DNA from: Cyanidioschyzon merolae
Taxonomy: Eukaryota
Reading direction: 5' to 3' (one strand)
DNA length: 64,000 bases
Assembly (NCBI GenBank): GCA_000091205.1
Contig: AP006496.2
Shown here: piece after piece, positions 10,706 through 60,500 of the stretch
Position numbering within the stretch: position 1 is the first letter of the stretch
Layout of the letters: each line of letters begins with the position of its first letter
The notes under the pieces: model-generated
What the model was told of the DNA's origin: nothing
The model's database searches: none
Seen by the model: the letters and a program-made list of their open reading frames with translations, nothing else
Made by a program: the position numbers and the translations under genes

Positions 10706-12529
10706 CTACCGCCACATCCATGTGTCGATGCCGGCGTCCAGTGGAGGTGCCCACTGGTCAAAGTCCATGGCGGGTACCATACTCGGCCAGTAGCCGGCGT
10801 GGTGGACAGATCCTCGTCGCGACCAGAGCGGCTCCGAGTCGGAATTCGTCGGACTCCATAACAAGCGCTCCGGCTGACGACGACTATACCCGCAGTCGTG
10901 AAGGAGGATGTCTTCCAGCTCCGAAGCCATCAGCGTTGGGCGCAGCGTGTACGACACGCTCGTAGCGTACTCGTACTCCAGCCAGTCGACCTCGGCGAAG
11001 AGGTGCCACGGGTCCGCGTCAAGCGATCCCGACAGCGACGCAGCCGGACGCGTTTCGCCAAGCGCTGTTGAGCCGTGAAACGCACCCAGACCGACCTCGT
11101 GAGCGCCACGCATGCGCCAAAGCGCGCCCACATGCGGCAGACACCGACAAACGTAACATGCTTCGGCCCCGAGAACGGATCCGTCTCGGATTCGCCGCAA
11201 GACGTCGGGAAGCGGCAGCTTCGGCTCGCCCAGTTGCTGTCGTGCCAGCTGGACGTGGGCGCTAGCCTCGAGAGCAGCCTCTTCGTGGGTAGCGAGCCGC
11301 GTACGTCTCACGTCCGTAAGACGTGCAAGGTCAAGAAAGCAATTAAACAGCACGACAGGTACGCCGACCGCTCGACAAGCATCCACAATGCGCAGCACGG
11401 ACCCCAGATGCCTCGACGCAACCGCATTTGTAATGACAACCACATCCGGCAGTGCTGCAAGCAAGTCGTCGCCGTAATCTCCGTCGAATGCCTGCGCGAC
11501 ATGGGTGCATCCTGCATCGGCTAAGAGCGCGTTTCGCACAGCAAATAGCGTCCGTAGTCGGCAACGTCGATCACGAGGCACCAGCATCCAGGGGCTGGTA
11601 CTCCCGGCCGCCACCGCTGCCTCTGGATGCGTATCCAACGCAGTAAGTCCAAGGAGGTTGCGTTCCGGGTCTGCAGCCGCGTCGGCAATACCAATCACAT
11701 CCAGAAAGGATGCATCGTCGGCGGTATGGCTCGCCTCCAGCACGTTGCGGGCCGAGTCGAACACAGCGCGCATGAGGCAACGTGCTATTTCCTCATTGGG
11801 ATCTATGTCTTCGTAATAGGTTAGCAACTTGGGCGCTGAGCCCCGAAGCGAGTCGGCATCACGTGTGCCGGGCGAGTCCGCTGCAACACCGTGACGAGCT
11901 TGTGTCCCTCGCCACCGCCGCAGGGGCATGAGCGCTCCACCCCCAAGCTGCCGAGCTGTGGCGTCCAGAGGCGCCACACAAACACACACCCGCGCTCCGC
12001 GTTGCTGCGTGAACACTTCCACATAGTCATGAAAGAGATCACGAGAGTAGCGACGCAGTTCGTTTGCCGGGACGGCATGGTACCACTTGTCTTTGGTGCG
12101 CCCCATGGGCAGCTCTATGGACCAGACCCCCCAGTCGGGGACCTTGCGCAAGACGTGCAGCGTCGCATACTGCGCCTGCAGGATAGAGAACTCCACGGTC
12201 TGGGGCAGGCACGGCGGCAGTGAACTGGTATCCGCGTACACTGTGCGTAGGGACTCCGTGAGCGCTTCAAAGTTGCATGTCGCATCTGGTACAGCAGACC
12301 ACGACGCGATGCGCTCAAGTCGCTGGCGCTGCGCTTTCGTTATCGCTGGTTCCGAGTTCACACCGACGAGCAGTGCGCGCTGTGTCCCTAGTCGTTTCCG
12401 CAAGCTTGAGCGGCAACCTCGCGACACCAAAGGCACAACGAAACAGCGCTGTGAGCGAGCGCTGCTGCTGGGAAAGCCTGCCACAAACGCGCTTTTTCGC
12501 TCACAAGCACTGCAGTGAAGCCTCCGCAT
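10706..12529 (-). CDS. Hypothetical protein, 607 aa, no confident domain assignment
   Basis: Long ORF with balanced composition. The central block DVVVITNAVASRHLGSVLRIVDACRAVGVPVVLFNCFLD looks like a folded domain, but I cannot name it. Confidence 0.45.
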   Translation of the reverse strand: MRRLHCSACERKSAFVAGFPSSSARSQRCFVVPLVSRGCRSSLRKRLGTQRALLVGVNSEPAITKAQRQRLERIASWSAVPDATCNFEALTESLRTVYADTSSLPPCLPQTVEFSILQAQYATLHVLRKVPDWGVWSIELPMGRTKDKWYHAVPANELRRYSRDLFHDYVEVFTQQRGARVCVCVAPLDATARQLGGGALMPLRRWRGTQARHGVAADSPGTRDADSLRGSAPKLLTYYEDIDPNEEIARCLMRAVFDSARNVLEASHTADDASFLDVIGIADAAADPERNLLGLTALDTHPEAAVAAGSTSPWMLVPRDRRCRLRTLFAVRNALLADAGCTHVAQAFDGDYGDDLLAALPDVVVITNAVASRHLGSVLRIVDACRAVGVPVVLFNCFLDLARLTDVRRTRLATHEEAALEASAHVQLARQQLGEPKLPLPDVLRRIRDGSVLGAEACYVCRCLPHVGALWRMRGAHEVGLGAFHGSTALGETRPAASLSGSLDADPWHLFAEVDWLEYEYATSVSYTLRPTLMASELEDILLHDCGYSRRQPERLLWSPTNSDSEPLWSRRGSVHHAGYWPSMVPAMDFDQWAPPLDAGIDTWMWR

Positions 12530-12770
12530 GGAACCTGTGCGGGTAGGTTACCACCAGCACCAGCACCAGCACCAGCACCACTACCAGAGACGCTGTGTGG
12601 CAGCGTGAGCGCTTTTCAGGTGTCGCCCCTCCCGCTACGTCACCTGTCGACGGAGCTGGTGGCGTTTGGGGCCCGCCTGCCGCAGTGCAGCGCTCGCGCA
12701 GGATTCTCGACGCATCGCGGCAGCATCAGGGCAGCGATATACCTCACGGAGCACTGAAAAACACACACAC

Positions 12771-12865
12771 ACACAAAAAAAGTAAGAAAAGAAAAATGCG
12801 CATAATCGGAGAACGCTTGCCTAGGTAAACGTTTTGTCAATGAAAAAAATCAGGGCATCGTTGAG
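12771..12865. repeat. Dispersed conserved element of about 95 bp, copy A, immediately 5' of the 93-bp array
   Basis: See copy B at 41195-41300. The two copies are about 85% identical over roughly 90 bp. Confidence 0.7.
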
Positions 12866-12876
12866 CCGTTGTTGAT

Positions 12877-13695
12877 GCACCAGATTCCCCGATTCTCACC
12901 CGAGACGCATGGAGTTGCACTTGGTATCGGCAATTCGGGAAGCAATGCTCTCAATGAGCCGGTGTTGGTGCACCAGATTCCCCGATTCTCACCCGAGACG
13001 CATGGAGTTGCACTTGGTATCGGCAATTCGGGAAGCAATGCTCTCAATGAGCCGGTGTTGGTGCACCAGATTCCCCGATTCTCACCCGAGACGCATGGAG
13101 TTGCACTTGGTATCGGCAATTCGGGAAGCAATGCTCTCAATGAGCCGGTGTTGGTGCACCAGATTCCCCGATTCTCACCCGAGACGCATGGAGTTGCACT
13201 TGGTATCGGCAATTCGGGAAGCAATGCTCTCAATGAGCCGGTGTTGGTGCACCAGATTCCCCGATTCTCACCCGAGACGAATGGAGTTGCACTTGGTATC
13301 GGCAATTCGGGAAGCAATGCTCTCAATGAGCCGGTGTTGGTGCACCAGATTCCCCGATTCTCACCCGAGACGCATGGAGTTGCACTTGGTATCGGCAATT
13401 CGGGAAGCAATGCTCTCAATGAGCCGGTGTTGGTGCACCAGATTCCCCGATTCTCACCCGAGACGAATGGAGTTGCACTTGGTATCGGCAATTCGGGAAG
13501 CAATGCTCTCAATGAGCCGGTGTTGGTGCACCAGATTCCCCGATTCTCACCCGAGACGCATGGAGTTGCACTTGGTATCGGCAATTCGGGAAGCAATGCT
13601 CTCAATGAGCCGGTGTTGGTGCACCAGATTCCCCGATTCTCACCCGAGACGAATGGAGTTGCACTTGGTATCGGCAATTCGGGAAGCAATGCTCT
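12877..13695. repeat. 93-bp tandem array, 8.8 near-perfect copies
   Basis: Unit gcaccagattccccgattctcacccgagacgcatggagttgcacttggtatcggcaattcgggaagcaatgctctcaatgagccggtgttggt starts at 12877, 12970, ... 13621. The only variation is an alternating C/A (gacgCatgg or gacgAatgg). All three + frames and one - frame are open, which produces the ORFs 12869..13819, 12909..13724 and 12850..13767. Confidence 0.95.
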
Positions 13696-14136
13696 CGCGT
13701 ATGACACGCTCCAGGTTCCACTAGGAACACACGTCATACGCGGCTTTCGGCATGATGTTTCGTTCACGAGGTTCTCCTGGTGCCTTCCCTACCTCGAGAA
13801 CGCTATCTGCGGCCTCTGAAGCGTCGCTGCGGACGTCGTAGGAAGAGGATACGGCTTTTTTTCAAACCTGTGCGGGCACCAGCACGAGAAACCTCTGGTC
13901 CTCAACGCGGAGACTGGTCAGACAACTGTTCGACGTCCTGGCGTCTGCATGGGGCGCAGAGGCCTCTGCCGCGAGTGCCGTCGGCACCCAAGTATACGAA
14001 GAACCCAGCTCCACGTATCGATCCTGTACCATAAACAAAATCGGCATGAGGGTTGCGCTTGCCGAGCGCTGCACGTCAGCGATAGGCCCGCAGTCGCCTG
14101 ATCCTGTCGGTGTATCGGCAAGCGAGGTTCTAGCAC

Positions 14137-29829: not shown

Positions 29830-31494
29830 GCGGTTCGGTGTCTCGAACACGATGCCAACACATGGGCTTTTGCTTTGCGCTGGAGCTGGATGCCATTGCG
29901 CTATCGTGTGTAATAAACTGAATCGATAAACCTGTCTGGCGGAGCGAGCGCCTCAGTGTTTGCCAGGGTATGGCGCTTGGTCGAGTTCGCAGGCTTGACG
30001 ACCGTCGGTGAGTGAACCTTTGAGCATCACCGTCGTGCGATGCAGCGTGAGGAATACTTGAGGGTGCGGGCAAGGTTATGCTCCGGAATCCATAAACAAG
30101 TGCTGGGGAACGATATCGCTCTTGGAGCTTGCAGTGACATTTATATGGAGGCGCGTAGACCAGCCCAGACAGGAGTCTCGGGAGGCGATTCCCGCCCTGA
30201 ACCGCGACGATGCTCGAGTGTGTTCTGTTCGTGGATGTGCATCACGTCAGTAACGCACTCACTGACGCAGTTGGGGTGCGGTTCACGTATTGGAACAAGG
30301 ATTACAAAATCCGGTGTTTGGGTGTTGTTACCGGCCGGAAAAATAGCGAGAACAAAGCAGTTAAGCGATGATGTATGCGAAGACAGCATCATCGAACTTG
30401 GCATGACCAGGAATACATGCTTATTCGCTGCAAGCGAGGAATATCCATGATGGATGACAAGGGGCTTCAGCAGGCATCGCTCAGCGTTTTGTTTTGTTTG
30501 CCACAAGTCGTCCCTGCTACTCTTCAGCACTGACGTCACTAGTGCGGGATGCGACCTGTCGGTGAGCGTCGGTGCTGGAGCGTGCTCTTTCGCAGGCGTA
30601 GCTCGTCGTGAAACAGGGAGCTCAGGCGCTTATCCCGTGTCTCGTTTCGAGAATCTGCCGCTGTACTTGAGCAAAAGCCGGTGCACCTGGCATCTTCCGC
30701 GACACCCTGCCCAGCGACCCCGAGCAGCAGTGCTTGCGCACTACAGCTCTACAGCGGGAAACCGGTACTCGGCAGCTGCGTTTGCACGATATTTTAGAGA
30801 CCAGAGCGACAGCTTCTTCCACAAGACTGAGTGCACAGAGACGCGTACTTCCGTTCCTCCATTCCGACAGAGGGCGCTTTGAAGCGCCTCGCCGTGTACA
30901 AGCACCGGAAGCTCCGTTTCCTATGTGGATTGCCAGACGCACGGCAGCGACGCACTTCACGGACGTAGATGTAGATGGATACAGGCCTGTTTAGCGGGCA
31001 AAGTGTGAAAAAGACGCAATGTATGTCGGTTCATATAGACGCGTGCAGCGTCCGGGACTCCAAGGGATGTTCCTGCAGTGCAATGATTGCAAATAGCAGT
31101 CGACATTTACGATACGAATCAGTGGACAAGCGCAAGGCAAGCCGCCGAGTGCGCAGAGTCGTGACCTACCACACAGCGGTGGTGCGCTTACACAAACATA
31201 AACACTTGTCGAGGTTTACAAGTCCGCCCAAATAGACGCCCCTGGGCGCGTTCCACGTAGACGACGGGCGCGTCAGCCGCGCACCAGTACCGCAGGCGGA
31301 CCCAGGCGCCTCCAAAGTCACACATATGCGCTCGGGTGTGTAGCGTGTCAAGAGCGACGCAAGCTTTACGGAGAGAGTTGATGCAGTGCTCGCACACTGC
31401 AGGCGAGGCCGCGAGCGCCAACGAGCGCGACGCTCGGCGGCACCCACAGGACGCTGCACCCGCTCGGCGGCACCAGTTGTGAGCAAGCACCGCC

Positions 31495-34548
<3,054 letters not shown>

Positions 34549-35154
34549 GCGTTGTGCTCGCTGCAACCGAGTACGTAAAGACCTTTGCTTCTGCGTACAT
34601 TTCATATAAACTCTCAGTTCTATGCACAAACTTACCGCAATCTTCGCTTTTGTGTAAGCCCTGAAAACATAGATGCAGCGAGGGACATCGCATAGCGTCA
34701 TTGTTTTTTAACCTCCCCTTGGATGGACTCCAGTCGTGCGAACGCTCGCGCGGCCGCATCGCCCAGCGCCCTGAATAAAGCGCTCAGGTGGGTATCCTGT
34801 CCGAAACGTCTTGGTAGCCCTGCTAGCATCGCCGATGGCCGTACGTGGAGTATCCAGCGACCTTCCTGGAACCAAGCCGTCGAGCGCCATCGCAACGGCC
34901 TTGCGTAGCGTCTGTATATGTTGAATTGGAAACGTATACAAACCATAGCGGACGACAGCGTCTCAGTGATAGACGTCTGCACAGAAAGCATGTTCTGTAT
35001 GCAGTGTATCTCACCGTATGAAGTATCGGTTGCCGGGCAACTGCATGCCTCGACAGTTCGAGCGATCGTCTTCGGCACGCAGGGAAGGGACGGCATTCGC
35101 CGGGGACTCGGATGCTGGACGCAGGAAACAAATCGGGTTAAGCAGAACACCAGT

Positions 35155-35508
35155 TTACTCGCCTTTGGCTTTCTTCTTCGGGAGAAGCACTGCGTGGATA
35201 TTCGGCAACACGCCGCCAGACGCAATGGTCACGTCCGCCAGGAGCTTGTTCAGCTCCTCGTCGTTGCGGATCGCCAGCTGGATATGACGCGGGATGATGC
35301 GCGTCTTCTTGTTGTCGCGCGCAGCGTTGCCCGCCAGCTCGAGAACCTCGGCGGTCAGGTACTCCATGACTGCAGCGAGGTAGACGGGCGCGCCAGCGCC
35401 GATGCGCTCCGCGTACCCGCCGTCTCGCAGGTACCGGTGGACGCGCCCCACCGGAAACTGCAAACCTGCTTTGCTGGAGCGTGACTTTGCCTTGCCCTTG
35501 GGCGCCAT
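35155..35508 (-). CDS. H2A: Histone H2A (canonical, 117 aa, no SQ(E/D) H2A.X tail)
   Basis: The ORF reads [90 protein letters not shown]...KKKAKGE. The start was verified as CAT at 35506-35508. The ORF-track entry extends upstream. Confidence 0.95.
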
Positions 35509-37272
35509 GGTGCTGAAAGCTTCGAGAGAGAACGCGAGAGACCGACCGCGAGAGAAACAGCAGCCGCAGCGGTATACCCGTCGACGGCAGAGAAGTGAGA
35601 CGAGAGCAGGAGCGACACAGAGCGCTGTGTCACACGGTATCAGTCGCGAGTACGAGAACGCCAAGTGTTGCAGCGGTGGTTGCGAGCGGCACAGGCGCGC
35701 CGTACCGTGGTGGCGTCTGCTGCGGGAGCCAGGGGCACGCGTTTGTTCGCGATCCGCGGCGGATGCGCGCGATGCGCAGGTGTCGATCATGGATCGCCAT
35801 CGCGCTGGAATACCGGACTGGCACCTGGTACAGAGCGGGTGATCGAGCGATCTGGCGATCGGGCGATCTACGCGGCGACACCGCGCATCGCTGCCCTGCT
35901 TCAGTCTTCGTACATCGTGTACGATCTGGCGATCTGGCGAACGACCCTGCAGCGCTATGTTTTGCTCGTGCCAGCGAATCGCTGCGATGCGTCACTCCTC
36001 GTACATCGTCTTCGATCGTCCGATCGACTGTGCGATGCTGCGTGGCTGCTGGTGCCGGCAACTCGCCCCTGCGCCATTCATCATCCTTCGTCAGCGATCG
36101 GGAGACCTCCCAATCGATTCGGCCAGCTCTACTGTTTCCCGGTACTCGAGACTCGCCCCTGCGCCATTCGTGGTCCTTCGTCAGCGATCGGGCGACCTCG
36201 CAATGGATTCGGCCAGCTCTACTGTTTCCCGGTACTAGAGACTCGCTCCTTCACCATACATCATCCTTCGTCAGCGATCGGGCGACCTCGCAATCGATTC
36301 GGCCAGCTCTACTGTTTCCCGGTACTAGAGACTCGCCCCTGCGCCATTCGTGGTCCTTCGTCAGCGATCGGGCGACCTCGCAATCGATTCGGCCAGCTCT
36401 ACTGTTTCCCGGTACTAGAGACTCGCCCCTGCGCCATTCGTGGTCCTTCGTCAGCGATCGGGCGACCTCGCAATCGATTCTGTAGCTCTGCTGTTTTCCG
36501 GTACTAGAGACTCGCCCCTGCGCCATTCGTCGGCCTTCGTCAGCGATCGGGCGACCGCATGATTCAGTCTTAGGCATTGACGATGGCGCAGCACGGAGCG
36601 GGCAGGCGATAGATCTTGCTTCGCAGCCATTCTTGCAGATCACCCGGTGTCGCGCGGTCGCCAATGGCAGTGATCGGCACTGCTTTCGCACCCGATCCTC
36701 CGATGCCTCGTGAGCACTCGGGCACGCGATACCGTGCCCTCATCCGGCGCAGGTCCGCGAGTCCAGCGATCTGAAGGGCTGTCGGCAAGCGGACACTCCC
36801 GCCGGGGACCACGAGCTGATTCTTGAACGCGCGCAGGTCCGCGAGTCTCTCGATCTGCTGACAAGCGCGCTTGCGATCACGCGATCGCTGTGCTACATTC
36901 CGTGCGCACGGATCGCGCCGCTGCGCGTCCGCACCGCGCGCCAGAGATGTGCGCCGGCAGCGCGAGCACCGCCGATCGCGGCGGCTCAGATCGCGCGCGC
37001 CAGCCGATCGCGATCCGCCCTTGCCGAACGTGCGTACGCGTGCCATCCGCAGCGCCGGATGCGCAGGTGCCTCTGGGCGCTTGGCAGGCAGCGCGCCCCC
37101 GCTCTTCCGCCTTGGCGCTGTGTTACACGGTACACGCGGGTCTGCCTCGACAAGTGCCTGGCCTGTGTGCGTCTTTGTGTCCCTGCCCGCGTGTGTTTGC
37201 GCGTGCCCAGCTGTTGTTGCTCTGTAACCGTGAGCGCTATCGCTCGAGTGTGTCTGACTGCGAACCCGAGAC
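35509..37272. promoter_or_regulatory. Bidirectional H2A/H2B intergenic promoter region (left copy), containing a 90-bp x6 array
   Basis: H2A and H2B are divergent and 1.76 kb apart. Each 90-bp unit carries TTTCCCGG, a 7/8 match to the E2F consensus TTTCCCGC. Confidence 0.45.
36061..36570. repeat. 90-bp tandem array, 6 copies, between H2A and H2B (left)
   Basis: Unit starts at 36061, 36151, 36241, 36331, 36421 and 36509. Unit sequence: actcgcccctgcgccattcgtggtccttcgtcagcgatcgggcgacctcgcaatcgattcggccagctctactgtttcccggtactagag. Confidence 0.9.
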
Positions 37273-37629
37273 ATGGCTATGAAAGGGAAGACTGTTGCGA
37301 AGAAGGTGGCGAAGGCGCCCGCTAGTATCGACAAGAAGAAGCGCAAGCGCCTCGAGACGTACAGCATCTACATCTACAAGGTTCTGAAGCAGGTGCACCC
37401 GGACACGGGCATCAGCTCGAAGGCGATGTCTATTATGAACTCTTTTGTGAACGACCTGTTCGAGCGGATTGCGTCGGAGGCGAGCAAGCTTGCGCAGTAC
37501 AATAAGACGAAGACGCTGACGTCGCGGGAGATCCAGACTGCAGTGCGCCTGCTGCTGCCGGGCGAGCTTGCGAAGCACGCCGTCTCCGAGGGCACCAAGG
37601 CTGTCACCAAATACACCTCAAGCCAGTAA
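37273..37629 (+). CDS. H2B: Histone H2B (118 aa)
   Basis: The ORF contains ...[97 protein letters not shown]. Confidence 0.95.
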
Positions 37630-37689
37630 AACGTTTACGTCGCCTGTGCATGTCTCGACTGCTGGGTGCGCTCCTGGCGGGCCGGCTGC

Positions 37690-38065
37690 CCGTGCCGGTC
37701 CGAGTGCCGGTATCCGCGTCGCTTCCAGCATACACGCTTCTTTGCTGCCCGTACCGGTCCGAGTACTGGTATCCGCGTCGCTTCCAGCATACACGCTTCT
37801 TTGCTGCCCGCGCCGGTCCGAGTACCGGTATCCGCGTCGCTTCCAGCATACACGCTTCTTTGCTGCCCGTACCAGTCCGAGTACCGGTATCCGCGTCGCT
37901 TCCAGCATACACGCTTCTTTGCTGCCCGTACCAGTCCGAGTACCGGTATCCGCGTCGCTTCCAGCGTCCATGGTTCTTTGCTGCAGGTTCCGGTCCGAGT
38001 ACCGGTATCCGCGTCGCTTCCAGCATCCATGCTTCTTTGCTGCCCGTGCCGGTCCGAGTCCCGGT
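37690..38065. repeat. 59-61-bp minisatellite, about 6 copies, downstream of H2B (left)
   Basis: The motif ccggtccgagtaccggtatccgcgtcgcttccagcatacacgcttctttgctgcccgta recurs at 37711, 37769, 37828, 37887, 37947 and 38006. Confidence 0.85.
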
Positions 38066-38466
38066 ACCTATCAGAGGGTGCTGCTGATGGTGGCTGCACA
38101 GGGGCAGCGTCAGCTCACAGTTCAAGCCGCCCACTTGCAGTGCATAGCCCACTGTCGATGCCGGTGCCGCGCTCGAGGAGATACCTCCACACGCCCTTTG
38201 CGCTTTTTTGTTCCAGACACTGCAAGGTCCATGCACGCGACGGCGGCTGTCCTGCGCACGAGCTCGACATGTCGTAGCGACCTCTACTGGATGCATCGCG
38301 GATACCCGCTCGCACGACCAGTGGAAGCATCAGTGACTGGGGCGGGCGCCGCACGGCCCGTCCAACGCGTCTTCGCTGCTTCCATACACCCATCCCGTGC
38401 TCTGTGACCGCAACTTGGGTATTTCAGCGGGCGCTGGCGGTGCATGAACAGCGTTCCTTGGACGGG

Positions 38467-39099
38467 TTACCCGTCCTGTGGGTCCAGAGCTGCTGAGCCC
38501 GCTACGAGTCGTGGAAGCTCGCGCTCGAGCACGAGTCGTACCCGCTGCGCCGCAGCCTCGTCGTCGTCCAGCGAGCGAACTCCCTCCGCTGTATACGGCG
38601 GCGGCACATAGACAGAGTCAAGCACGATTATGTTCGGCTCGTCCCAGCGACACGGCAGCGTCCTGTCGAGGGCGTCGAAGACCAGTTGGCCGAGCACACT
38701 CACGCCCCGCCCGAGCTTCGAAGACCGCTCACGCGCCCGGGCTAAACTCCGACTCTCGCGCTGCCGGAGTGCCTCGATACTGAGTGCAGGAAGGGAACCG
38801 CCAGAGAATAGCGCTCGCTCGCGTCCACTCCGCCAGCGCGACTGCCGCTGACTCGCTTCGATGCCCTCGCTCAGAACCTGCACTTCTGCCACGTGCGAAG
38901 CCCGTAGAACGTGCACATCGTACAGATCTGCACCCGATGACGAAGGCGTACAAACCACCAAAAGGTTCCGACGCTCATCATACGCGAAAACAATACCCTC
39001 AATGCCAGCAGGTACCGACGGCTCCGTAGGCGCGTCCGGCACACATTCGTCCAGCACAAGGCGCACCCTCAGACCCACGAGCGGCCGATCCATGAGCAC
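38467..39099 (-). CDS. LSM12: LSM12 homolog (LSM domain plus AD domain)
   Basis: The segment IEGIVFAYDERRNLLVVCTPSSSGADLYDVHVLRASHVAEVQVL parallels the LSM12 segment [37 protein letters not shown]. The segment CRWDEPNIIVLDSVYVPPPYTAEG parallels the AD-domain segment [24 protein letters not shown]. Confidence 0.75.
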   Translation of the reverse strand: MLMDRPLVGLRVRLVLDECVPDAPTEPSVPAGIEGIVFAYDERRNLLVVCTPSSSGADLYDVHVLRASHVAEVQVLSEGIEASQRQSRWRSGRERALFSGGSLPALSIEALRQRESRSLARARERSSKLGRGVSVLGQLVFDALDRTLPCRWDEPNIIVLDSVYVPPPYTAEGVRSLDDDEAAAQRVRLVLERELPRLVAGSAALDPQDG

Positions 39100-41194
39100 T
39101 CAACCAAAATATACACACCCAGCTTTACGGAAGGTGAACCTCCCCTGCTGGGGCTCAGTTTCGGCCTCGCCCAGCGTAGCCTAGCCCAGCGCAGCGACTC
39201 CTCCGAAAAGCGCGTCCCAGAGGTACTGTGACAGTCAAGAGCGCTGCTGCCGGTGCCGTCCTCGTGCAGGGCGAAAGCGGCTGCGCGACACACGCATGCC
39301 CGATCGACAGGGAACGCTGAACTACCCGCTTTGTTCCTACTTTTCGATCTGTATTTCGAGGGTTTCTGTAGGCATATAGCCTGGACATTCCAACTGGGGC
39401 AACACGAGCTTACGGATGGATACCTAGTTTGATGAATTTTTGTCGTGTTTCCGGAAGGCTCTTTCGATGGCCCACTCATGGAACTCGTAGCGTTCCTTGA
39501 GTGAGGATGCTTCGTGACGCTCTGGAGCAGGAGTTCGCAATCGAACCGATATCGATATCCAGTGCATGCGTACAGGCCTCTGTGGTTGCTCTTTGCCCGG
39601 GTATATTAAATTTAAAAGGCACACTCTTGAAGTTCTCGGTCGTTCCGTTGGAACGAGAATCATAGACCCAGCAATTCGCGCCTTTGGATTGGCGCGGATG
39701 AATTCCCGACGACGCACAAGCTCCTCACAAGCTCATGTCGAGCGTACATTGAATTTTTTAGGTCTATAATCCATTGCGCTCGAGACGCAAATCGCTCTTT
39801 CGTCGTCGCTACCTCCGATACGACATTCGAGAGCAGCATGGTATCTCTCAAAGGAGCTGGTGCCGGAGGCTCCCGTCACTTCTATTCGCATAAAGAACTG
39901 CATTGGACTCGGAGTCGAGTCATCGAAGCGACCGTTTCAAGGAGGGAATGCACCACCGTTTTCCACGGAGGGAGCGTAGACGGATCGAAAGCTTTCGACA
40001 GCATCTCCAGAATGAGTTTTCCCCGCGGTGTTTCCTTCATCGCATACAACATCGCACGCTGGAAATCCTCTAGCTAATAGCGCACCCTGCGGTTGCGCAT
40101 GCAAAAGACAGCAAACTCGCAGAACGATCCCCAGAAGAATCTCGGAATCGATTCACACGGCACCGGGTGCGGAAATCGAGAAGCGCATCGAGTGGTGCGC
40201 TCTGCACGGATCGAGGGCATGTAGCAGGCCACGAAGCAAGCGTTCACCCACTACGAAGCAGCGCTCGGCAGCGGATGAGGAGGAGGTCTGGTGCTGGTGG
40301 TGCTGGTGGTGCCCATACCGAACCGTCTGAACGAATTTACTTGTCGCCGATACGGCATCCGCACCGAGGCCTTATAAAACCTATATGCAAACGGGAAGCG
40401 ATGCGTCGATCGCGACTCGTACATGCGCACGAAACTCGTCGACATGAGCCAGAGGCGGCAAAATCAGGTCCTAAACGCCACCGCCAGAATCACTCGAACG
40501 CTGGCAGCAGTCCTGGAGAAACAGGATAGACTGGCGCATTTCATTCCAGATATAGGAGAGAGGAGAAGGATCCAGTCGCAGAAAAATCCCGCACAGGCTG
40601 ATGCGCATGACAATCGAAAGAGACCCAAACTCGAAAAAGTATATCCGGGTTGTTTCATTGGATCCGTTCCATTCTAGTCTGGACTGCGTTATGCACAAGC
40701 ACTGCTCAGTCGAACCAGGGATTCTCGAACGCGCGATTTCATTCTCGACAAGATGGGTATCGACTACGTCTCCAATTCGCAGACGTGCGTTCCACTGCTT
40801 ACTGACCAGACTTTTCCGAAACGACTCGTGATAACATCCCAGTCTACAGGTGTCGTGTCTGTCGAGTACTCTGCACTGGCTCCAGACGCGGCATTGCGAA
40901 TTCATTCTCACGGATAAAACTTCTATACAAGTCAGCCTTCCCCGAATGTGCGCTTGATCGCAGCGCGCACTGCAAGCAGCCGCCTCGAGCCGACGCCCCC
41001 CGTGCGGTACGGCGACGCCGTTCTGTCTCCGTGCAGCGACCGCACCGGCGCTATAGGCGCCATTGCGGATGCTCTCGACAGGTGCCAGGCACACACGATA
41101 GGACGTATGAAACGACCAGAATATCCGAGAAGAAGTATAGGTAATGTAACTTGGAGGTAGCGGGTTTGGTGGATATTTCACCGCACACAGGAAA

Positions 41195-41300
41195 AAACAC
41201 GCAAAAAAGGTGAGAAGAGAAAAATGCGCATAATCGGCGAACGCTGGCCTATGGAAACGTTTTGTCTATGGAAAAAAATGCAAAGCAGCCGCCGTTGCGC
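41195..41300. repeat. Dispersed conserved element of about 95 bp, copy B (copy A at 12771-12865)
   Basis: agaaaaatgcgcataatcgg(c/a)gaacgct(g/t)gccta(t/g)g(g/t)aaacgttttgtc(t/a)atg(g)aaaaaaat...gccgttg is shared between the two loci, and both copies are preceded by an A-rich tract. Confidence 0.7.
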
Positions 41301-41488
41301 GATGATCGCCGAGGACACGCCACCAGATTCCCGCCGTAGGCGCCGGCGCAAAGCGTTTTGCTTTCAACTGCAGCCTCGACGCTCGCGGCGAGTACGCCTT
41401 GCGCCCATCTCGGTGAGCGGTGTTGTTCGCGGTTACCTGTAGGGACCTCGCTCGAACACTTGTGGGCTTTTTGGTGTTGCTGAGAGAG

Positions 41489-41953
41489 ATGGCGTCTGGG
41501 GTTTCGGTTGATCCAGCGTGCTCTGCGGAGCTTTTGACCCTTATCCGTGCGTGTCCGCGCCAGTACCGAGCGGTTATTTACCGAGTGTCGCCTGACCTTC
41601 GTACGATTATAGTGGACCGCGTTCTGCCGTCGTCGAACATCACTGGTCGGAGCGCCGTGGAAGATTGGAAGGAGTTTACGAGTGACAAGTACCTACCCCG
41701 GGACGATTGCCGGTACGCGGTCTACGACTTTGAGTTCGATACTGCGGAGACGGGAAAGAAGAACAAAATAATTTTCTTGCTCTGGTCCCCCGCTAGCGCA
41801 CCGATCCGGTCAAAGATGGTTTACACTTCTTCGAGGCAAGCGATCGTCGCAGTTCTCGACGGTGTCCAAAAGGAGGTGCAGGCGACCGACGAGGAGGAAC
41901 TCGAGTATGCATGGGTCGAGTCGCAGGTGCGCCTCGCGTCATCCGCGCGCTAG
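41489..41953 (+). CDS. ADF/cofilin family actin-depolymerising factor
   Basis: Starting at MASGVSVDPACSAELLTLIRA..., the ORF has the ADF-H pattern (YRAVIYRVSPDLRTIIVDRV; YAVYDFEFDTAETGKKNKIIFLLWSPASAPIRSKMVYTSS). The ORF-track start at 41420 adds 23 hydrophobic residues that are probably not translated. Confidence 0.8.
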   Translation: MASGVSVDPACSAELLTLIRACPRQYRAVIYRVSPDLRTIIVDRVLPSSNITGRSAVEDWKEFTSDKYLPRDDCRYAVYDFEFDTAETGKKNKIIFLLWSPASAPIRSKMVYTSSRQAIVAVLDGVQKEVQATDEEELEYAWVESQVRLASSAR

Positions 41954-49698: not shown

Positions 49699-49890
49699 GG
49701 GGGCCGCCCAGCACGCGGCGCGCCCGACTGTTGCGGACTTGGAGAACTTTTCTCCATGCAAAGTTCAGGTGAACTGCGCGAGCCTGTGAAAGGCTCTCTA
49801 CCGGAAGCAGGACGGTAGCGGATGTACTGGGGATTATTTGCCGCACAGTGTAAGTGGTCTTTACGTACTCGGTTGCAGCGAGCACAACGC

Positions 49891-50223
<333 letters not shown>

Positions 50224-51920
50224 TCACAAGCAAACAAACACGCAGAAGAAGAGCAAACACAGGCTCAACCGTAGACGTGCGCGCGCGTAAACGAGAACGC
50301 AAACGCAAGCACACGCGCGAAGAGAATCGTAAACGAGAACGCACGCACAGACGCAAGCACGCGATGCGCACGGCGGCGGTACACGAACGTCACAGACGAA
50401 ATGCTGCGGGTAGCGCGCACGCACACACACAGAGACACACGCTCACAAGCAGCTCGCACACAGAGAGAGCGGGAGAGACGGGTTCAGACACAGGCCGGGG
50501 ATGCACGCAAACTCGGATGCGCGCCTCTGGCCGGTGGTTGATCGCTGCGAGTACCTGGGGACTCTATGCGGGGCGGAGAGCGCCAAGGCTTGCCGGAGGT
50601 GACGCCTGTGTGCGACCGGCGCCGGGGCCCTGCTGCAGCGCCGGCAGCGCGCTTGTTCGCGTTGAGCGCTGCGCTGGCGGTGCGTGCGGCGGGTGTTCCG
50701 GGTGATGGTGTGCGTTGCGTGCCGCGAGCCGGTACGCGCTGCTTGGTGCGTGTGTGATCGGTTTCGAACACGGAGCGCGAGGCTGTGATCGTGGGACCGG
50801 CGGGTGGCGCGATCTGGCGCCGGCTGGTGCGCGGATCGTGCGCGCCAGTTGGCGCGCGCGCGCGTCATCGGTGCGGCGCATTGAAACGGAGCGCGCGATC
50901 CGATGAGCACGTCGGCGCACGGGCGCCCTGTGCGCGCATTGCTCGATCGCGGCGCTGGGCGGCGGCTGGTGTATCTGGCGCCGCCGTGGCGCTCGTGGTC
51001 TCGTGCGCGCAGCTGTCCGGAGCGGTGCCCGGCAGCGGTGTATCTGGCGCCGCCGTGGCGCTCGTGGTCTCGTGCGCGCAGCTGTCCGGAGCGGTGCCCG
51101 GCAGCGGTGGATGCTGGCGCATGGCGCTCGTCAGGGCGGTGATGCCGCAGGCCCAGGAGCCAACCGGAGCTCGCCGCCCGACGACTAGGTAACGCGGGAA
51201 GCAGGACTGGCGCCGGGCACCTCTGCGTCGGTGGATCGGGCATGACGCGTTCAGCACGGCTGATCGGAAGCTTGCGGTGGTGGTATCGGTGATATGGAGC
51301 ATAGATCAGTGGCGCTTGGGGTCGTTTCAGTGGTGCATTCGGGAATGCAGCATAGACCGGTCGGAATCGGAGGGCGACACTCGTCGAGCGGCGTTGCACC
51401 ATATAGAGCAGTGCTGGCTGGGGCACGCACATTGTCCAGTCTGTCATCACACTGCTCGCATCAGTGCTGAGCGGAACCTGTGAATCGCCCATTCGTTTAC
51501 CCACCATGCTGCTGAGCAGACTCCATTCCACGAGGCGTCAGAGTGTCCATTTACGAAGCACATGTACCGCTCGCGGCCCGCCGGTCATCAAGCCGGATAT
51601 GTGGGAGGCGGCGCTGCCGATCGGATCCCGCCAATCTCGCATTCCGCATCGCTGATGCTATGACACCTGTTGTCGTAAAGCCCATGCTGCACCCTTGAAA
51701 GCTTGCGGTAAGCTGCCCGTCGTTGGAGCCGTGATATCGCGTGCGCTCTCTCCGCTGCAAGCTCGCAGAGAAGGACTGGAATCTTCCGCGAGACGCATTT
51801 TCGCCGGAACCCAGCCCCGCGATGTCGTCTCCTCAGCGGGCGCTCCCGGACTTTGGGAGACTCACAGGTATGTCCTCAGCAGTGATGCACGCGAGACCGA
51901 TGTATCGCCATGCACCATCC

Positions 51921-52530
51921 GGGTGATGAGACTACTGTCAGCAGTAGCTGTACTTTCTGATCTGCACTGAGCGTATCTTCGGCTCATCGCTCCAAATGCA
52001 TGCCAGACCGATCTATCGATATACACTAGTCGGGTGATGAGACTATCGTCGGCGCCAGCTGTACTTTCTGATCTGCACTGAGCGTATCTTCGGCTCATCG
52101 CTCCAAATGCATGCTAGACCGATCTATCGATATACACTAGTCGGGTGATGAGACTACTGTCAGCAGTAGCTGTACTTTCTGATCTGCACTGAGCGTATCT
52201 TCGGCTCATCGCTCCAAATGCATGCCAGACCGATCTATCGATATACACTAGTCGGGTGATGAGACTACTGTCAACAGTAGCTGTACTTTCTGATCTGCAC
52301 TGAGCGTATCTTCGGCTCATCGCTCCAAATGCATGCCAGACCGATCTATCGATACACACTAGTCGGGTGATGAGACTACTGTCAACAGTAGCTGTACTTT
52401 CTGATCTGCACTGTGCGTATCTTCGGCTCATCGCTCCAAATGCATGCCAGACCGATCTATCGATATACACTAGTCGGGTGATGAGCCTATCGTCGGCGCC
52501 AGCTGAACTTTCTGATCTGCACCGGGCGTC
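51921..52530. repeat. 111-bp minisatellite, 5.5 copies, in the H3-H4 intergenic region (right)
   Basis: gggtgatgag starts recur at 51921, 52032, 52143, 52254, 52365 and 52476, a period of exactly 111 bp. Confidence 0.9.
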
Positions 52531-52712
52531 TCCTGGTCTCGTCGCCGGAGACGGCGCGCGATCCACTACCGAGGCATGCGAGATCGCTGAAGCACCAAGA
52601 TCGCCCGCATCGCAAGATCGCTCACGCGTGCACCCCGCTGGTGGCGCGCACGCGTCTCGCCGATCGCACTCACCACCCGCACGCGGGCGATCGGCACCAT
52701 CTCCTCCGTTGA

Positions 52713-53285
<573 letters not shown>

Positions 53286-54774
53286 GGCGGTGCTTGCTCA
53301 CAACTGGTGCCGCCGAGCGGGTGCAGCGTCCTGTGGGTGCCGACGAGCGTCGCGCTCGTTGGCGCTCGCGGCCTCGCCTGCAGTGTGCGAGCACTGCATC
53401 AACTCTCTCCGTAAAGCTTGCGTCGCTCTTGACACGCTACACACCCGAGCGCATATGTGTGACTTTGGAGGCGCCTGGGTCCGCCTGCGGTACTGGTGCG
53501 CGGCTGACGCGCCCGTCGTCTACGTGGAACGCGCCCAGGGGCGTCTATTTGGGCGGACTTGTAAACCTCGACAAGTGTTTATGTTTGTGTAAGCGCACCA
53601 CCGCTGTGTGGTAGGTCACGACTCTGCGCACTCGGCGGCTTGCCTTGCGCTTGTCCACTGATTCGTATCGTAAATGTCGACTGCTATTTGCAATCATTGC
53701 ACTGCAGGAACATCCCTTGGAGTCCCGGACGCTGCACGCGTCTATATGAACCGACATACATTGCGTCTTTTTCACACTTTGCCCGCTAAACAGGCCTGTA
53801 TCCATCTACATCTACGTCCGTGAAGTGCGTCGCTGCCGTGCGTCTGGCAATCCACATAGGAAACGGAGCTTCCGGTGCTTGTACACGGCGAGGCGCTTCA
53901 AAGCGCCCTCTGTCGGAATGGAGGAACGGAAGTACGCGTCTCTGTGCACTCAGTCTTGTGGAAGAGGCTGTCGCTCTGGTCTCTAAAATATCGTGCAAAC
54001 GCAGCTGCCGAGTACCGGTTTCCCGCTGTAGAGCTGTAGTGCGCAAGCACTGCTGCTCGGGGTCGCTGGGCAGGGTGTCGCGGAAGATGCCAGGTGCACC
54101 GGCTTTTGTTCAAGTACAGCGGCAGATTCTCGGAACGAGACACGGGATAAGCGCCTGAGCTCCCTGTTTCACGACGAGCTACGTCTGCGAAACAGCACGC
54201 TCCGGCACCGACGCTCACCGACAGGTCCCATCCCGCACTAGTGACGTCAGCGCTGAATAGTAGCAGGGACATTTTATAGAAATGACAAGCTGCCATACCC
54301 TTTAAAGAGGCAGCGTGCGAAGCAGAATGTCACGTCGTCTCTAGGTTCAAGCGCATCCGCTGCCGCCAGTCTTGATTTGTACTCGGAACGCTGTTCATAC
54401 ACCGCCAGCGCCCGCTGAAATACCCAAGTTGCGGTCACAGAGCACGGGATGGGTGTATGGAAGCAGCGAAGAAGCGTTGGACGGGCCGTGCAGCGCCCGC
54501 CCCCCATCACTGATGCTTCCACTGGTCGTGCGAGCGGGTATCCGCGATGCATCCAGTAGAGGTCGCTACGACATTTCGCGCTCGTGCGCGGGGCAGCCGC
54601 CGTGGCGTGCATGGACCTTGCAGTGTCTGGAACAAAAAAGCGCAAAGGGCGTGTGGAGGTATCTCCTCGAGCGCGGCACCGGCATCGACAGTGGGCTATG
54701 CACTGCAAGTGGGCGGCTTGAACTGTGAGCTGACGCTGCCCCTGTGCAGCCACCATCAGCAGCACCCTCTGATA

Positions 54775-54985
54775 GGTACCGGGCCTCGGACTGGTACGGG
54801 CAGCAGAGAAGAGTGGACGCTGCAAGCGACGCGGATACCGGTACTCGAACCGGAACCTGCAGCAAAGAACCATGGATGCTGGAAGCGACGCGGATACCGG
54901 TACTCGGACCGGCACGGGCAGCAAAGAACCATGGACGCTGGAAGCGACGCGGATACCGGTACTCGGACTGGTACGGGCAGCCGGC
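54775..54985. repeat. 61-bp minisatellite, about 3.5 copies, downstream of H2B (right); paralogous to the 6-copy array at 37690-38065
   Basis: gcgacgcggataccggtactcgg recurs at 54826, 54887 and 54948. Confidence 0.8.
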
Positions 54986-55036
54986 CCGCCAGGAGCGCAC
55001 CCAGCAGTCGAGACATGCACAGGCGACGTAAACGTT

Positions 55037-55393
55037 TTACTGGCTTGAGGTGTATTTGGTGACAGCCTTGGTGCCCTCGGAGACGGCGTGCTTCGCAAGC
55101 TCGCCCGGCAGCAGCAGGCGCACTGCAGTCTGGATCTCCCGCGACGTCAGCGTCTTCGTCTTATTGTACTGCGCAAGCTTGCTCGCCTCCGACGCAATCC
55201 GCTCGAACAGGTCGTTCACAAAAGAGTTCATAATAGACATCGCCTTCGAGCTGATGCCCGTGTCCGGGTGCACCTGCTTCAGAACCTTGTAGATGTAGAT
55301 GCTGTACGTCTCGAGGCGCTTGCGCTTCTTCTTGTCGATACTAGCGGGCGCCTTCGCCACCTTCTTCGCAACAGTCTTCCCTTTCATAGCCAT
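55037..55393 (-). CDS. H2B: Histone H2B (second copy)
   Basis: The protein is identical to the H2B at 37273..37629. Confidence 0.95.
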
Positions 55394-56109
55394 GTCTCGG
55401 GTTCGCAGTCAGACACACTCGAGCGATAGCGCTCACGGTTACAGAGCAACAACAGCTGGGCACGCGCAAACACACGCGGGCAGGGACACAAAGACGCACA
55501 CAGGCCAGGCACTTGTCGAGGCAGACCCGCGTGTACCGTGTAACACAGCGCCAAGGCGGAAGAGCGGGGGCGCGCTGCCTGCCAAGCGCCCAGAGGCACC
55601 TGCGCATCCGGCGCTGCGGATGGCACGCGTACGCACGTTCGGCAAGGGCGGATCGCGATCGGCTGGCGCGCGCGATCTGAGCCGCCGCGATCGGCGGTGC
55701 TCGCGCTGCCGGCGCACATCTCTGGCGCGCGGTGCGGACGCGCAGCGGCGCGATCCGTGCGCACGGAATGTAGCACAGCGATCGCGTGATCGCAAGCGCG
55801 CTTGTCAGCAGATCGAGAGACTCGCGGACCTGCGCGCGTTCAAGAATCAGCTCGTGGTCCCCGGCGGGAGTGTCCGCTTGCCGACAGCCCTTCAGATCGC
55901 TGGACTCGCGGACCTGCGCCGGATGAGGGCACGGTATCGCGTGCCCGAGTGCTCACGAGGCATCGGAGGATCGGGTGCGAAAGCAGTGCCGATCACTGCC
56001 ATTGGCGACCGCGCGACACCGGGTGATCTGCAAGAATGGCTGCGAAGCAAGATCTATCGCCTGCCCGCTCCGTGCTGCGCCATCGTCAATGCCTAAGACT
56101 GAATCATGC

Positions 56110-56520
56110 GGTCGCCCGATCGCTGACGAAGGCCGACGAATGGCGCAGGGGCGAGTCTCTAGTACCGGAAAACAGCAGAGCTACAGAATCGATTGCGAGG
56201 TCGCCCGATCGCTGACGAAGGACCACGAATGGCGCAGGGGCGAGTCTCTAGTACCGGGAAACAGTAGAGCTGGCCGAATCGATTGCGAGGTCGCCCGATC
56301 GCTGACGAAGGACCACGAATGGCGCAGGGGCGAGTCTCTAGTACCGGGAAACAGTAGAGCTGGCCGAATCGATTGCGAGGTCGCCCGATCGCTGACGAAG
56401 GATGATGTATGGTGAAGGAGCGAGTCTCTAGTACCGGGAAACAGTAGAGCTGGCCGAATCCATTGCGAGGTCGCCCGATCGCTGACGAAGGACCACGAAT
56501 GGCGCAGGGGCGAGTTGCCG
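56110..56520. repeat. 90-bp tandem array, about 4.5 copies, between H2B and H2A (right)
   Basis: Units gcgagtctctagtaccgggaaacagtagagctggccgaatcgattgcgaggtcgcccgatcgctgacgaaggaccacgaatggcgcagg recur with a 90-bp period. Confidence 0.85.
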
Positions 56521-57075
56521 GCACCAGCAGCCACGCAGCATCGCACAGTCGATCGGACGATCGAAGACGATGTACGAGGAGTGACGCATCCCAGCGATTC
56601 GCTTGCACGAGCAAAACATAGCGCTGCAGGGTCGTTCGCCAGATCGCCAGATCGTACACGATGTACGAAGACTGAAGCAGGGCAGCGATGCGCGGTGTCG
56701 CCGCGTAGATCGCCCGATCGCCAGATCGCCAGATCGCTCGATCACCCGCTCTGTACCAGGTGCCAGTCCGGTATTCCAGCGCGATGGCGATCCATGATCG
56801 ACACCTGCGCATCGCGCGCAGCCGCCGCGGATCGCGAACAAACGCGTGCCCCTGGCTCCCGCAGCAGACGCCACCACGGTACGGCGCGCCTGTGCCGCTC
56901 GCAACCACTGCTGCAACACTTGGCGTTCTCGTACTCGCGACTGATACCGTGTGACACAGCGCTCTGTGTCGCTCCTGCTCTCGTCTCACTTCTCTGCCGT
57001 CGACGGGTATACCGCTGCGGCTGCTGTTTCTCTCGCGGTCGGTCTCTCGCGTTCTCTCTCGAAGCTTTCAGCACC

Positions 57076-57429
57076 ATGGCGCCCAAGGGCAAGGCAAAGT
57101 CACGCTCCAGCAAAGCAGGTTTGCAGTTTCCGGTGGGGCGCGTCCACCGGTACCTGCGAGACGGCGGGTACGCGGAGCGCATCGGCGCTGGCGCGCCCGT
57201 CTACCTCGCTGCAGTCATGGAGTACCTGACCGCCGAGGTTCTCGAGCTGGCGGGCAACGCTGCGCGCGACAACAAGAAGACGCGCATCATCCCGCGTCAT
57301 ATCCAGCTGGCGATCCGCAACGACGAGGAGCTGAACAAGCTCCTGGCGGACGTGACCATTGCGTCTGGCGGCGTGTTGCCGAATATCCACGCAGTGCTTC
57401 TCCCGAAGAAGAAAGCCAAAGGCGAGTAA
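57076..57429 (+). CDS. H2A: Histone H2A (second copy)
   Basis: The protein is identical to the H2A at 35155..35508. The ATG was verified at 57076. Confidence 0.95.
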
Positions 57430-57661
57430 ACTGGTGTTCTGCTTAACCCGATTTGTTTCCTGCGTCCAGCGTCCGAGTCCCTGGTCACCGCCGTGCATGT
57501 TCGTCGTCGCGTTTCCCGCTCCGCATCTATCGCACGGTTTGAATCGCTCCAAGTATACGGCCTCAGATTGATACCAAAGAGGATTCGACGGTGTGCGTCT
57601 CCGCCAGCCCTGCGACACGAATGCATCGCATCGAGCAGGGCTCCCAGTTCCAGACGCGCTG

Positions 57662-58660: not shown

Positions 58661-59994
58661 AGCGGGAGCTGAAAACGCGCAAACTCCCGGCGACTACCGC
58701 GATCGTTCTCAGTGGAGGGTCTGCTGCACTCGACATGCTCCATTCGGGCAATGCAGTCCATCGTCTTTGATCGATAAAACGTTTCCGTACTGAGCACGGA
58801 GTACAGACTGCTCGCTTGATATCAGCAATCGGAAAAGTATCTATCAGTCTTCATCCTACCTTCAAGTTCTATGACGTATACGTCCCTTCCGAGATCATCA
58901 TCATTTCGTACGTTCTGTCGAGCGCCGAGCCTACCTAGTGCGCCCGCAAGTGCACCTGGCGCATCCCAGCCTACGCGCTAGTCAGAAGCGCAGGCGTCGC
59001 CTCGTCGCCACTAACGGGACGTCGTGAGACGCCTCGTGTAGAAGGCAGAAGGCTGCTGAAGTCGGACTTGAGTCATCGCAGCGATCGCTACCGGTACAGG
59101 GTGCGTCTCCGCTTTACACGAAATGTGGGTAGACGGATCGAAGTTTCCTGACCTGTTCCCCAATCTGAATTTTACGTACGGTACCTGTTTTACCACGGAC
59201 AGCATTGCAATCCATCATTCTTCTCTCGAATCGAGCGCTCTGCGCTTACGCACGCAGCGAATAGAGCACTCGCTGAGAGGATCGCTTAGAAGAAGCCCAC
59301 GATCACTGACTACAGCCCAGAACACCTCAATGCGGAAGGGGGTATCGATTGGAGCCCCCTGTACTCGTCCAGGGCATGATGCGAGCGATGAAACAAGTGT
59401 TCACGCGCTAAAAAGCCCTGCCTTTGTGATGGAGGAGGAGGAGGAGGCGGTGAATTTTGCGCCGTATCGACCGGTGGGAACACCAAACCACAACCAAGTA
59501 TGACTGCTTCGAAGCACACACCGGGCTGTTTACAAGAAAGATGAAAAGCGCGAGCGAAGCGCAGATCACAGAATCCATCCACGCACGAAATGCGTCAATA
59601 ACGCCCGGAAGCAGCGATGTCGGGACGTGAACGCTACCGTCAACATCCCTCGACTGCTGCCAACAGAGCTACATTGAAAGTAGAGACCGCCTTATTTTTC
59701 AGCCGAATAAAAGAGCGTGGAAAATGAAACACTCGTCTTCAAGTCCGCAAAGGATGGTATAGATGAACATAGAAAAAGACCCTAACGTGAGCGTCTACAC
59801 ACCCGAGTTCCTGGATACGTTCTGTTTCATTCCCGCGAGGATGCGCAGACCCCCATACTATGAGTGCTTGTACATCGCCGTTCGCTTGTGAGGCGCCCGG
59901 CACCAGAACTCCGCACCCAGGAGGCGTCGCTCTCTTGTAAACGAACCGCTCATAGCGTCATCGTCCTCGTTGCCACCGTTACACGACGCCATAG

Positions 59995-60500
<506 letters not shown>

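Follow-up and report, generated by a model that had tools for sequence, protein, structure and literature searches.

The window analyzed here, a stretch of 64,000 nucleotides, is part of chromosome 14 of Cyanidioschyzon merolae 10D. It contains a 607-aa ORF at 10706-12529 (-), which matches CMN157C (BAM81258) exactly, and the ADF/cofilin gene at 41489-41950 (+), an exact match to BAM81271. Two similar intergenic segments, here called copy A and copy B (Table 1), lie upstream of the start codons of these genes by 210-320 nt (CMN157C, position 12529 on the minus strand; ADF, position 41489 on the plus strand) and face the nearest gene start in opposite directions. The 3' end of copy B is 210 nt away from the ATG of ADF/cofilin, and copy A adjoins an array of nine 93-bp units at 12862-13696, in agreement with a sequence-only reading of this DNA that had placed one copy about 200 bp 5' of ADF/cofilin and the other beside a 93-bp array.

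The surroundings hold further repeats. Intergenic tandem arrays with units of 59-111 bp start at 2005, 5184, 8088, 12862, 24113, 32287, 36061, 37685, 45132, 51885 and 63469, and for the array beside copy A the unit counts of the window and of environmental contig L070 differ by one. A segment of about 8 kb is duplicated in inverted orientation with about 99% identity (30510-38457 versus 49856-57494) and includes arrays with periods of 107/111, 69, 90 and 59 bp, and a 500-nt repeat occurs, 100% identical, at 31462-31961, 52819-53118 and 59999-60498. A region of about 1.9-2.4 kb (39100-40980) that separates copy B from the gene at 38467-39099 (-) has no convincing ORF. Among the fetched loci it matches only the orthologous contigs L057 and L101, in addition to one short hit of 75% identity (L072, 40156-40247), and is thus not a repeat in these loci. 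From window position 41467 on, environmental contig L001 and the window are 98.4% identical. Positions 1-2506 of L001 stand in place of window positions 39100-41466 (the ORF-poor 2.4 kb and copy B) and contain a gene for a DEAD-box helicase at a distance of 50 nt upstream of ADF. Either a rearrangement in the strain or chimeric assembly of the contig accounts for this difference.

Copies A and B share a direct repeat of 81 nt without gaps and with 88% identity (12769-12849 versus 41197-41277; repeat family D17 of the 64-kb window), for which a window-internal blastn search gives E = 1e-24. Within this window the 12-mer GCGCATAATCGG has exactly two occurrences, and a block of 19 nt is invariant between the two copies. 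Their similarity is confirmed to be far above chance, and the earlier description of about 85% identity over some 90 bp at two loci is borne out. The extent given at that time was too short, as copy A measures 116 nt and copy B 296 nt: the interval 41195-41300 corresponds to the last third of copy B only, and the A-rich or (CA)n tract that had been said to precede the element is internal to it. The homology of copy B with more than 40 independent loci begins at 40981-40986 and stops at 41266-41285. Copy B starts with CCTCGAGCCGAC and ends with ...GGAAACGTTTTGTCTATGG followed by A7; the 3' end of copy A reads ...GTCAATG, also followed by A7. Two more copies, C and D, belong to related subfamilies. 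Copy C aligns with the 1.33-kb family consensus described below at 73% identity over 75 nt (blastn, E = 1e-6); it carries the 5' blocks of the A/B family followed by a different, decayed tail, and reaches 5' past the CCTCGAG point. Copy D is detected by nhmmer at 58816-58953 (E = 7e-7), with a weak core match at 58766-58789. An inverted third match just outside copy B, 40906-40954 (-), has an nhmmer E of 0.005 at about 63% identity and was treated as chance.

Table 1. Repeat copies, their shared stretch and the flanking target-site duplications (TSDs) in the window, assigned according to the interpretation preferred in the text.
Feature	Position	Strand	Remarks
Copy A, 5'-truncated LINE tail, 116 nt	12734-12849	+	consensus positions 1237-1331; alignment; length of 116 from TSD script
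Copy A, left TSD TCAGGGCA	12726-12733		ATCAGGGCA if the preceding A is counted; sequence and TSD script
Copy A, right TSD TCAGGGCA	12850-12857		degenerate first unit of the 93-bp array follows directly
Stretch of 81 nt shared with copy B	12769-12849	+	internal A-rich linker, core TGCGCATAATCGGNGAACGCT...AAACGTTTTGTC, A tail
Copy B, 5'-truncated LINE 3' UTR tail, 296 nt	40983-41278	+	consensus positions 1048-1329 of 1.33 kb; alignments
Copy B, left TSD TGCAAGCAGCCG	40971-40982		read from the sequence; exact part GCAGCCGCC by TSD script
Copy B, right TSD TGCAAAGCAGCCG	41279-41291		one A more than left; sequence and TSD script
Copy C, older diverged copy of a related subfamily	~8895-9196	-	boundaries approximate; aligned with subfamily members
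Copy D, diverged copy of a related subfamily	~58763-59010	-	ends with ...GGAAACGTTTTATCGATCAAAGA; boundaries approximate; aligned with subfamily members

Both copies are flanked by short direct repeats (Table 1), which are target-site duplications and take the combined form TGCAA(A)GCAGCCG in the case of copy B. The A/B similarity stops exactly at these repeats. The sequence GCCGTTG, which had been noted downstream of the shared element, is indeed common to A and B, but it is not part of the element: neither GCCGTTG nor the 12-mer CACCAGATTCCC was found downstream of 44 other insertion sites examined. CACCAGATTCCC is present only in the units of the 93-bp array (12862-13696) and once at 41321-41332, 43 nt past copy B. 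Its chance expectation across the window is 0.18, and when the two flanks are shuffled and aligned locally, 4 of 300 trials attain the score of the shared 12-mer. Based on the 44 sites and the shuffles, an extension of the element into GCCGTTG or CACCAGATTCCC is ruled out in favor of flanking DNA, and the sharing of CACCAGATTCCC is probably a coincidence.

To place the two copies in a wider context, further copies were collected from JGI metagenome contigs, some of them 98-99.5% identical to the window; strain 10D itself is represented by the 64-kb window. The query pattern was the 20-nt core TGCGCATAATCGGNGAACGC, and the conservation of this core among the fetched copies is therefore by construction. 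The core matches at least 120 stretches in metagenome contigs, eight of which are unrelated chance hits. Among the matches listed, the whole element is carried by at least 121 occurrences in at least 46 flank-distinct clusters, and a single assembly (Ga0078972) already contains at least 33 such clusters. What had been described as a two-copy element is thus a dispersed multi-copy family in environmental Cyanidioschyzon DNA, and the copy counting that had been proposed as a check points to a retroposon terminus.

The architecture of this family is that of a nested set anchored at the 3' side. All copies among the matches listed have one 3' end, ...GGAAACGTTTTGTCAATG (TGCGCATAATCGGAGAACGCTGGCCTAWGKAAACGTTTTGTCAATG), followed by an A-run that varies from A6 to A9, while their 5' ends differ and element lengths range from 68 to about 1400 nt. 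Among the same matches, homology is shared by 109 loci at a distance of 20 nt from the core and by 70 at 120 nt; about 21-33 loci remain at 220-320 nt, 16 reach 520 nt and 9 extend to 920-1220 nt. The longest unit that the fetched loci have in common measures 1.33 kb. A tail-derived minisatellite, in which the terminal 110-150 nt of the tail form a tandem array of two to at least four copies, is present in some environmental contigs (L078 2868-3344; L022 734-903; L043 109-277; L061 1958-2126).

Target-site duplications, the search for which had also been proposed, are present at both window copies and at other sites. Exact non-A flanking repeats of at least 10 nt were found in 13 of 38 distinct insertions compared to 0.27% of mismatched-flank pairs, and repeats of at least 12 nt in 10 of 38 compared to none in the mismatched-flank control, both among the matches listed. 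At the remaining 25 of the 38 sites the script detected no exact duplication of at least 10 nt, although some of them have a duplication recognizable by eye that was missed through imprecise boundaries. The length of the duplications varies from 8 to 23 nt among the matches listed, with TCGAGGCCGCGG, TCGCCGCCTGCC, TCGAAAAGCCAAC and a 23-nt repeat in L060 as clear examples. About 18 duplications are well supported and 12 of them start with (A)TCG (L010, L014, L016, L018, L023, L032, L047, L048, L050, L063, L096 and L123), whereas copy A of the window has ATCA at 12725-12733. That most duplications start with (A)TCG indicates a target preference of the family and points to a putative sequence-preferring nick site.

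These features also bear on the possibility that the element is a MITE or another DNA-transposon remnant, or else derives from a segmental duplication. Its small size, its dispersal and its lack of coding sequence fit such an origin, and another part of the window indeed holds a large inverted duplication of 99% identity. Yet no terminal inverted repeats pair the element termini, as already stated in the sequence-only reading; the target-site duplications of 8-23 nt are not of fixed length, and the copies carry an A-tail and 5' truncations. Copies A and B have unrelated flanks except for the 12-mer that 4 of 300 shuffles match, and a segmental duplicate retained by chance is ruled out by the differing duplications around A and B together with the dozens of copies elsewhere. 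The probability that we assign to a DNA transposon or a duplication is thus close to nil.

A reverse-transcriptase (RT) parent of the family can be traced in the environmental contigs. On two single contigs, L127 and L129, an RT ORF with the FADD motif runs unbroken into the tail consensus with 88-91% identity. In L127, the ORF at 508-1293 (...LLFADDVVLL...) extends into the beginning of a match to the 1.33-kb consensus (987-2279, 90% identity), which ends in a diverged core and an A-rich tail; in L129 the RT ORF likewise continues unbroken into the tail, over 2.3 kb. Three proteins that are 84-87% identical to the L127 ORF (P0112, P0111 and P0114) pass the gathering score of Pfam RVT_1, with 79, 47 and 84 bits reported for these paralogues. 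The 1.33-kb consensus itself holds an ORF remnant for which protein searches retrieved short environmental ORFs only. One of these ORFs, P0054, reaches further on its N-terminal side, and the extension is 85-90% identical to fragments with PF00078; the nearest named proteins are annotated as 'RNA-directed DNA polymerase from mobile element jockey'. Pfam gave no match for the C-terminal ORF remnant or for P0054, P0043 and P0038. The string 'CPCCG...ET...C' in the remnant resembles the C-terminal Cys motifs of LINE ORF2 and may correspond to them. All RT ORFs seen are fragments of at most 416 aa, and neither an intact full-length element nor an endonuclease domain, by which LINE clades are defined (APE or restriction-like), was recovered among the copies fetched, upstream walk included. 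Upstream of the RT region of the 3.3-kb LINE copy in L129 (about 1900-2100), one frame reads ...IGFASWNICGVASILDDEI...IGKETQ; we take this SWNICG...KET string to resemble the N-terminus of an AP-type endonuclease (APE), the rest of the domain being missing. Direct terminal repeats other than the target-site duplications, LTRs included, were not seen in the family.

The nested 3'-anchored set, the A-tails, the variable target-site duplications and the RT-encoding parent together constitute the signature of non-LTR retrotransposition. We are therefore highly confident that copies A and B are 5'-truncated 3' UTR tails of a non-LTR (LINE) retrotransposon of Cyanidioschyzon merolae, dead on arrival. 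Both belong to one LINE family, copy A being more severely 5'-truncated than copy B. The earlier proposal of a MITE or SINE terminus holds insofar as a retroposon does terminate here; the retroposon is a LINE, of which the element forms the 3' end, and neither a MITE nor a SINE with a Pol III head.

Target-primed reverse transcription is the established mechanism of non-LTR retrotransposons, and the two copies may have arisen along the following lines. The endonuclease of the element would nick the target at an (A)TCG-type site, and the 3'-OH released in this way would serve as the primer for reverse-transcribing the LINE RNA from its A-rich end, a site that the RT may recognize through the terminal motif. 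Synthesis would then abort before the 5' end is reached, at the recurrent 296-nt point in the case of copy B and at 116 nt in the case of copy A, and the duplications would be generated during second-strand repair. The terminal motif GGAAACGTTTTGTC is kept in subfamilies whose tails otherwise differ, which suggests that it is a plausible RT-recognition element of the kind associated with 'stringent' 3'-end recognition.

Fragments of this type do not code for protein, and no function need be assumed for them. The location of A and B some 200-250 nt upstream of CMN157C and ADF/cofilin reflects insertion into tolerated intergenic DNA. The pairwise divergence of about 13%, the fragmentary state of the RT ORFs and the fact that environmental strains carry both insertions point to old and inactive copies; the orthologous environmental contigs are 99.2-99.5% identical to the window and carry both A and B (clusters 23 and 0).

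In the sequence-only reading, a small ncRNA gene and a shared promoter or insulator motif had been put forward as well. A conserved core acting as a small non-coding RNA gene in several copies would be in line with the invariant 19-nt block and with the T-runs that border a 46-nt core on both sides on the minus strand. Rfam, however, gave no match for the whole window at the gathering threshold, nor for the tail and the 1.4-kb element at E<=1, and the cores fold no better than shuffled sequences (z-scores of +0.23 to +0.44 on both strands; -1.5 for the 354-nt tail). The predicted structures of A and B are unlike each other. A 10-bp helix of the MFE fold (GAUAGGACGU/ACGUUUUGUC) was compared by eye across the subfamilies and dismissed: the only double change, in copy D, leads to C-A and is not compensatory. 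The sequence is moreover fully explained by a longer element with target-site duplications and an RT-encoding parent, which makes the RNA gene extremely improbable.

The alternative that the element is a shared, or co-opted, promoter, enhancer or insulator motif for the neighboring genes draws on the start codons of CMN157C and ADF lying 210-320 nt downstream of the two copies. Its probability is also very low, given that the two copies point in opposite directions with respect to the nearest gene, that dozens of sites with unrelated flanks carry the same sequence and that the A/B likeness ends exactly at the target-site duplications, so that insertion accounts for the sequence. Exaptation at a single locus, e.g., that of ADF, is conceivable. 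With LINE insertion as the preferred explanation, the two unannotated intergenic look-alikes on chromosome 14 are retroposon debris and represent neither a novel RNA gene nor a motif with a regulatory role.

Insertion by a LINE leaves room for a refinement concerning copy B. Among the matches listed, 10 of 38 distinct insertions, copy B included, begin within 3 nt on either side of the same point at CCTCGAGCCGAC (consensus 1044-1053), a common start that is unexpected under simple random truncation. Copy B and the other copies of about 296 nt could accordingly represent a discrete, non-autonomous, SINE-like retroposon derived from the LINE 3' end, with an RNA of its own, transcribed or processed, that would be mobilized in trans by the LINE. 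Several of the ten have clean target-site duplications of 10-23 nt. Two 5' subtypes can be distinguished, and all ten common-start copies belong to subtype 1, compared to none of the six subtype-2 copies with this start. In long copies, a hairpin (ACCCGA-TTCTACG-TCGGGT) is located immediately upstream of the common start. On the other side, no tRNA-, 7SL- or 5S-like head was detected by Rfam at E<=1 or by ARAGORN (no tRNA or tRNA-like head in the window and seven loci), and no convincing A/B boxes were seen by eye. The 296-nt copies do not form a lineage of their own in a neighbor-joining tree, where they intermingle with two copies of 1.33 kb and the mean distances are equal (0.13). In addition, copy A with its 116 nt and the many other lengths show ordinary truncation. 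A separate SINE-like retroposon is hence unlikely, and we take the 296-nt start to be a site of repeated truncation or processing rather than the mark of a separate SINE lineage.

Formulated more narrowly, the 296-nt form might be a head-less LINE-tail retroposon that inserts at (A)TCG and whose RNA 5' end arises by processing or by RT arrest at the hairpin, a proposal that we hold to be just as doubtful. C. merolae is among the most transposon-poor free-living eukaryotes. If the proposal were true, tails of the 296-nt type would outnumber the 26 retroelements reported for its genome, and some of them, such as the one at the ADF/cofilin promoter, may have been co-opted.

Regardless of this refinement, the kind of repeat described here is already known and represents ordinary retroposon debris. 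Similar to truncated insertions of the L1 type, the family combines 3'-anchored nesting and 5' truncation with a variable A-rich tail and variable target-site duplications. Whereas L1 prefers TT/AAAA, this family favors (A)TCG, and unlike the L1-type insertions its tail is a short run of A6-A9 after the conserved terminal motif GGAAACGTTTTGTC. Some SINEs share the 3' tail of a LINE, as do tRNA-derived SINEs paired with stringent LINEs. The copies resemble such LINE-tailed SINEs in their short non-coding form, their LINE 3' end, their target-site duplications and, in this case, a recurrent form of 296 nt, but they differ in lacking a Pol III-type head, in the colinearity of the 296 nt with the LINE 3' UTR and in not forming a separate lineage in the tree. 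The (A)TCG preference, the subfamily-wide terminal motif and the recurrent 296-nt truncation point are of minor interest for transposon biology.

The closest comparison is provided by the elements of C. merolae itself. The 10D genome contains 26 class I elements, all of which are closest to non-LTR retrotransposons and three of which have an intact RT (Nozaki et al., 2007, PMC1955436). The genome has also been mined by the Repbase curators (Bao and Jurka, 2013, PMC3627910), and the Ensembl repeat tracks include the LINE class (PMC11050394). The A/B family shares its genome with the published non-LTR elements of C. merolae (PMC1955436) and resembles them in having an RT-encoding parent with a non-LTR-type RT and no LTRs; its own nearest named relatives are jockey-type RTs. 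The difference concerns the way of counting: the 26 elements were counted by RT similarity, which would leave out short RT-less tails such as A and B, whereas at least 33 tails per assembly are seen here. LINE-derived insertions are thus more numerous in this very compact genome than the RT-based count of 26 class I elements suggests.
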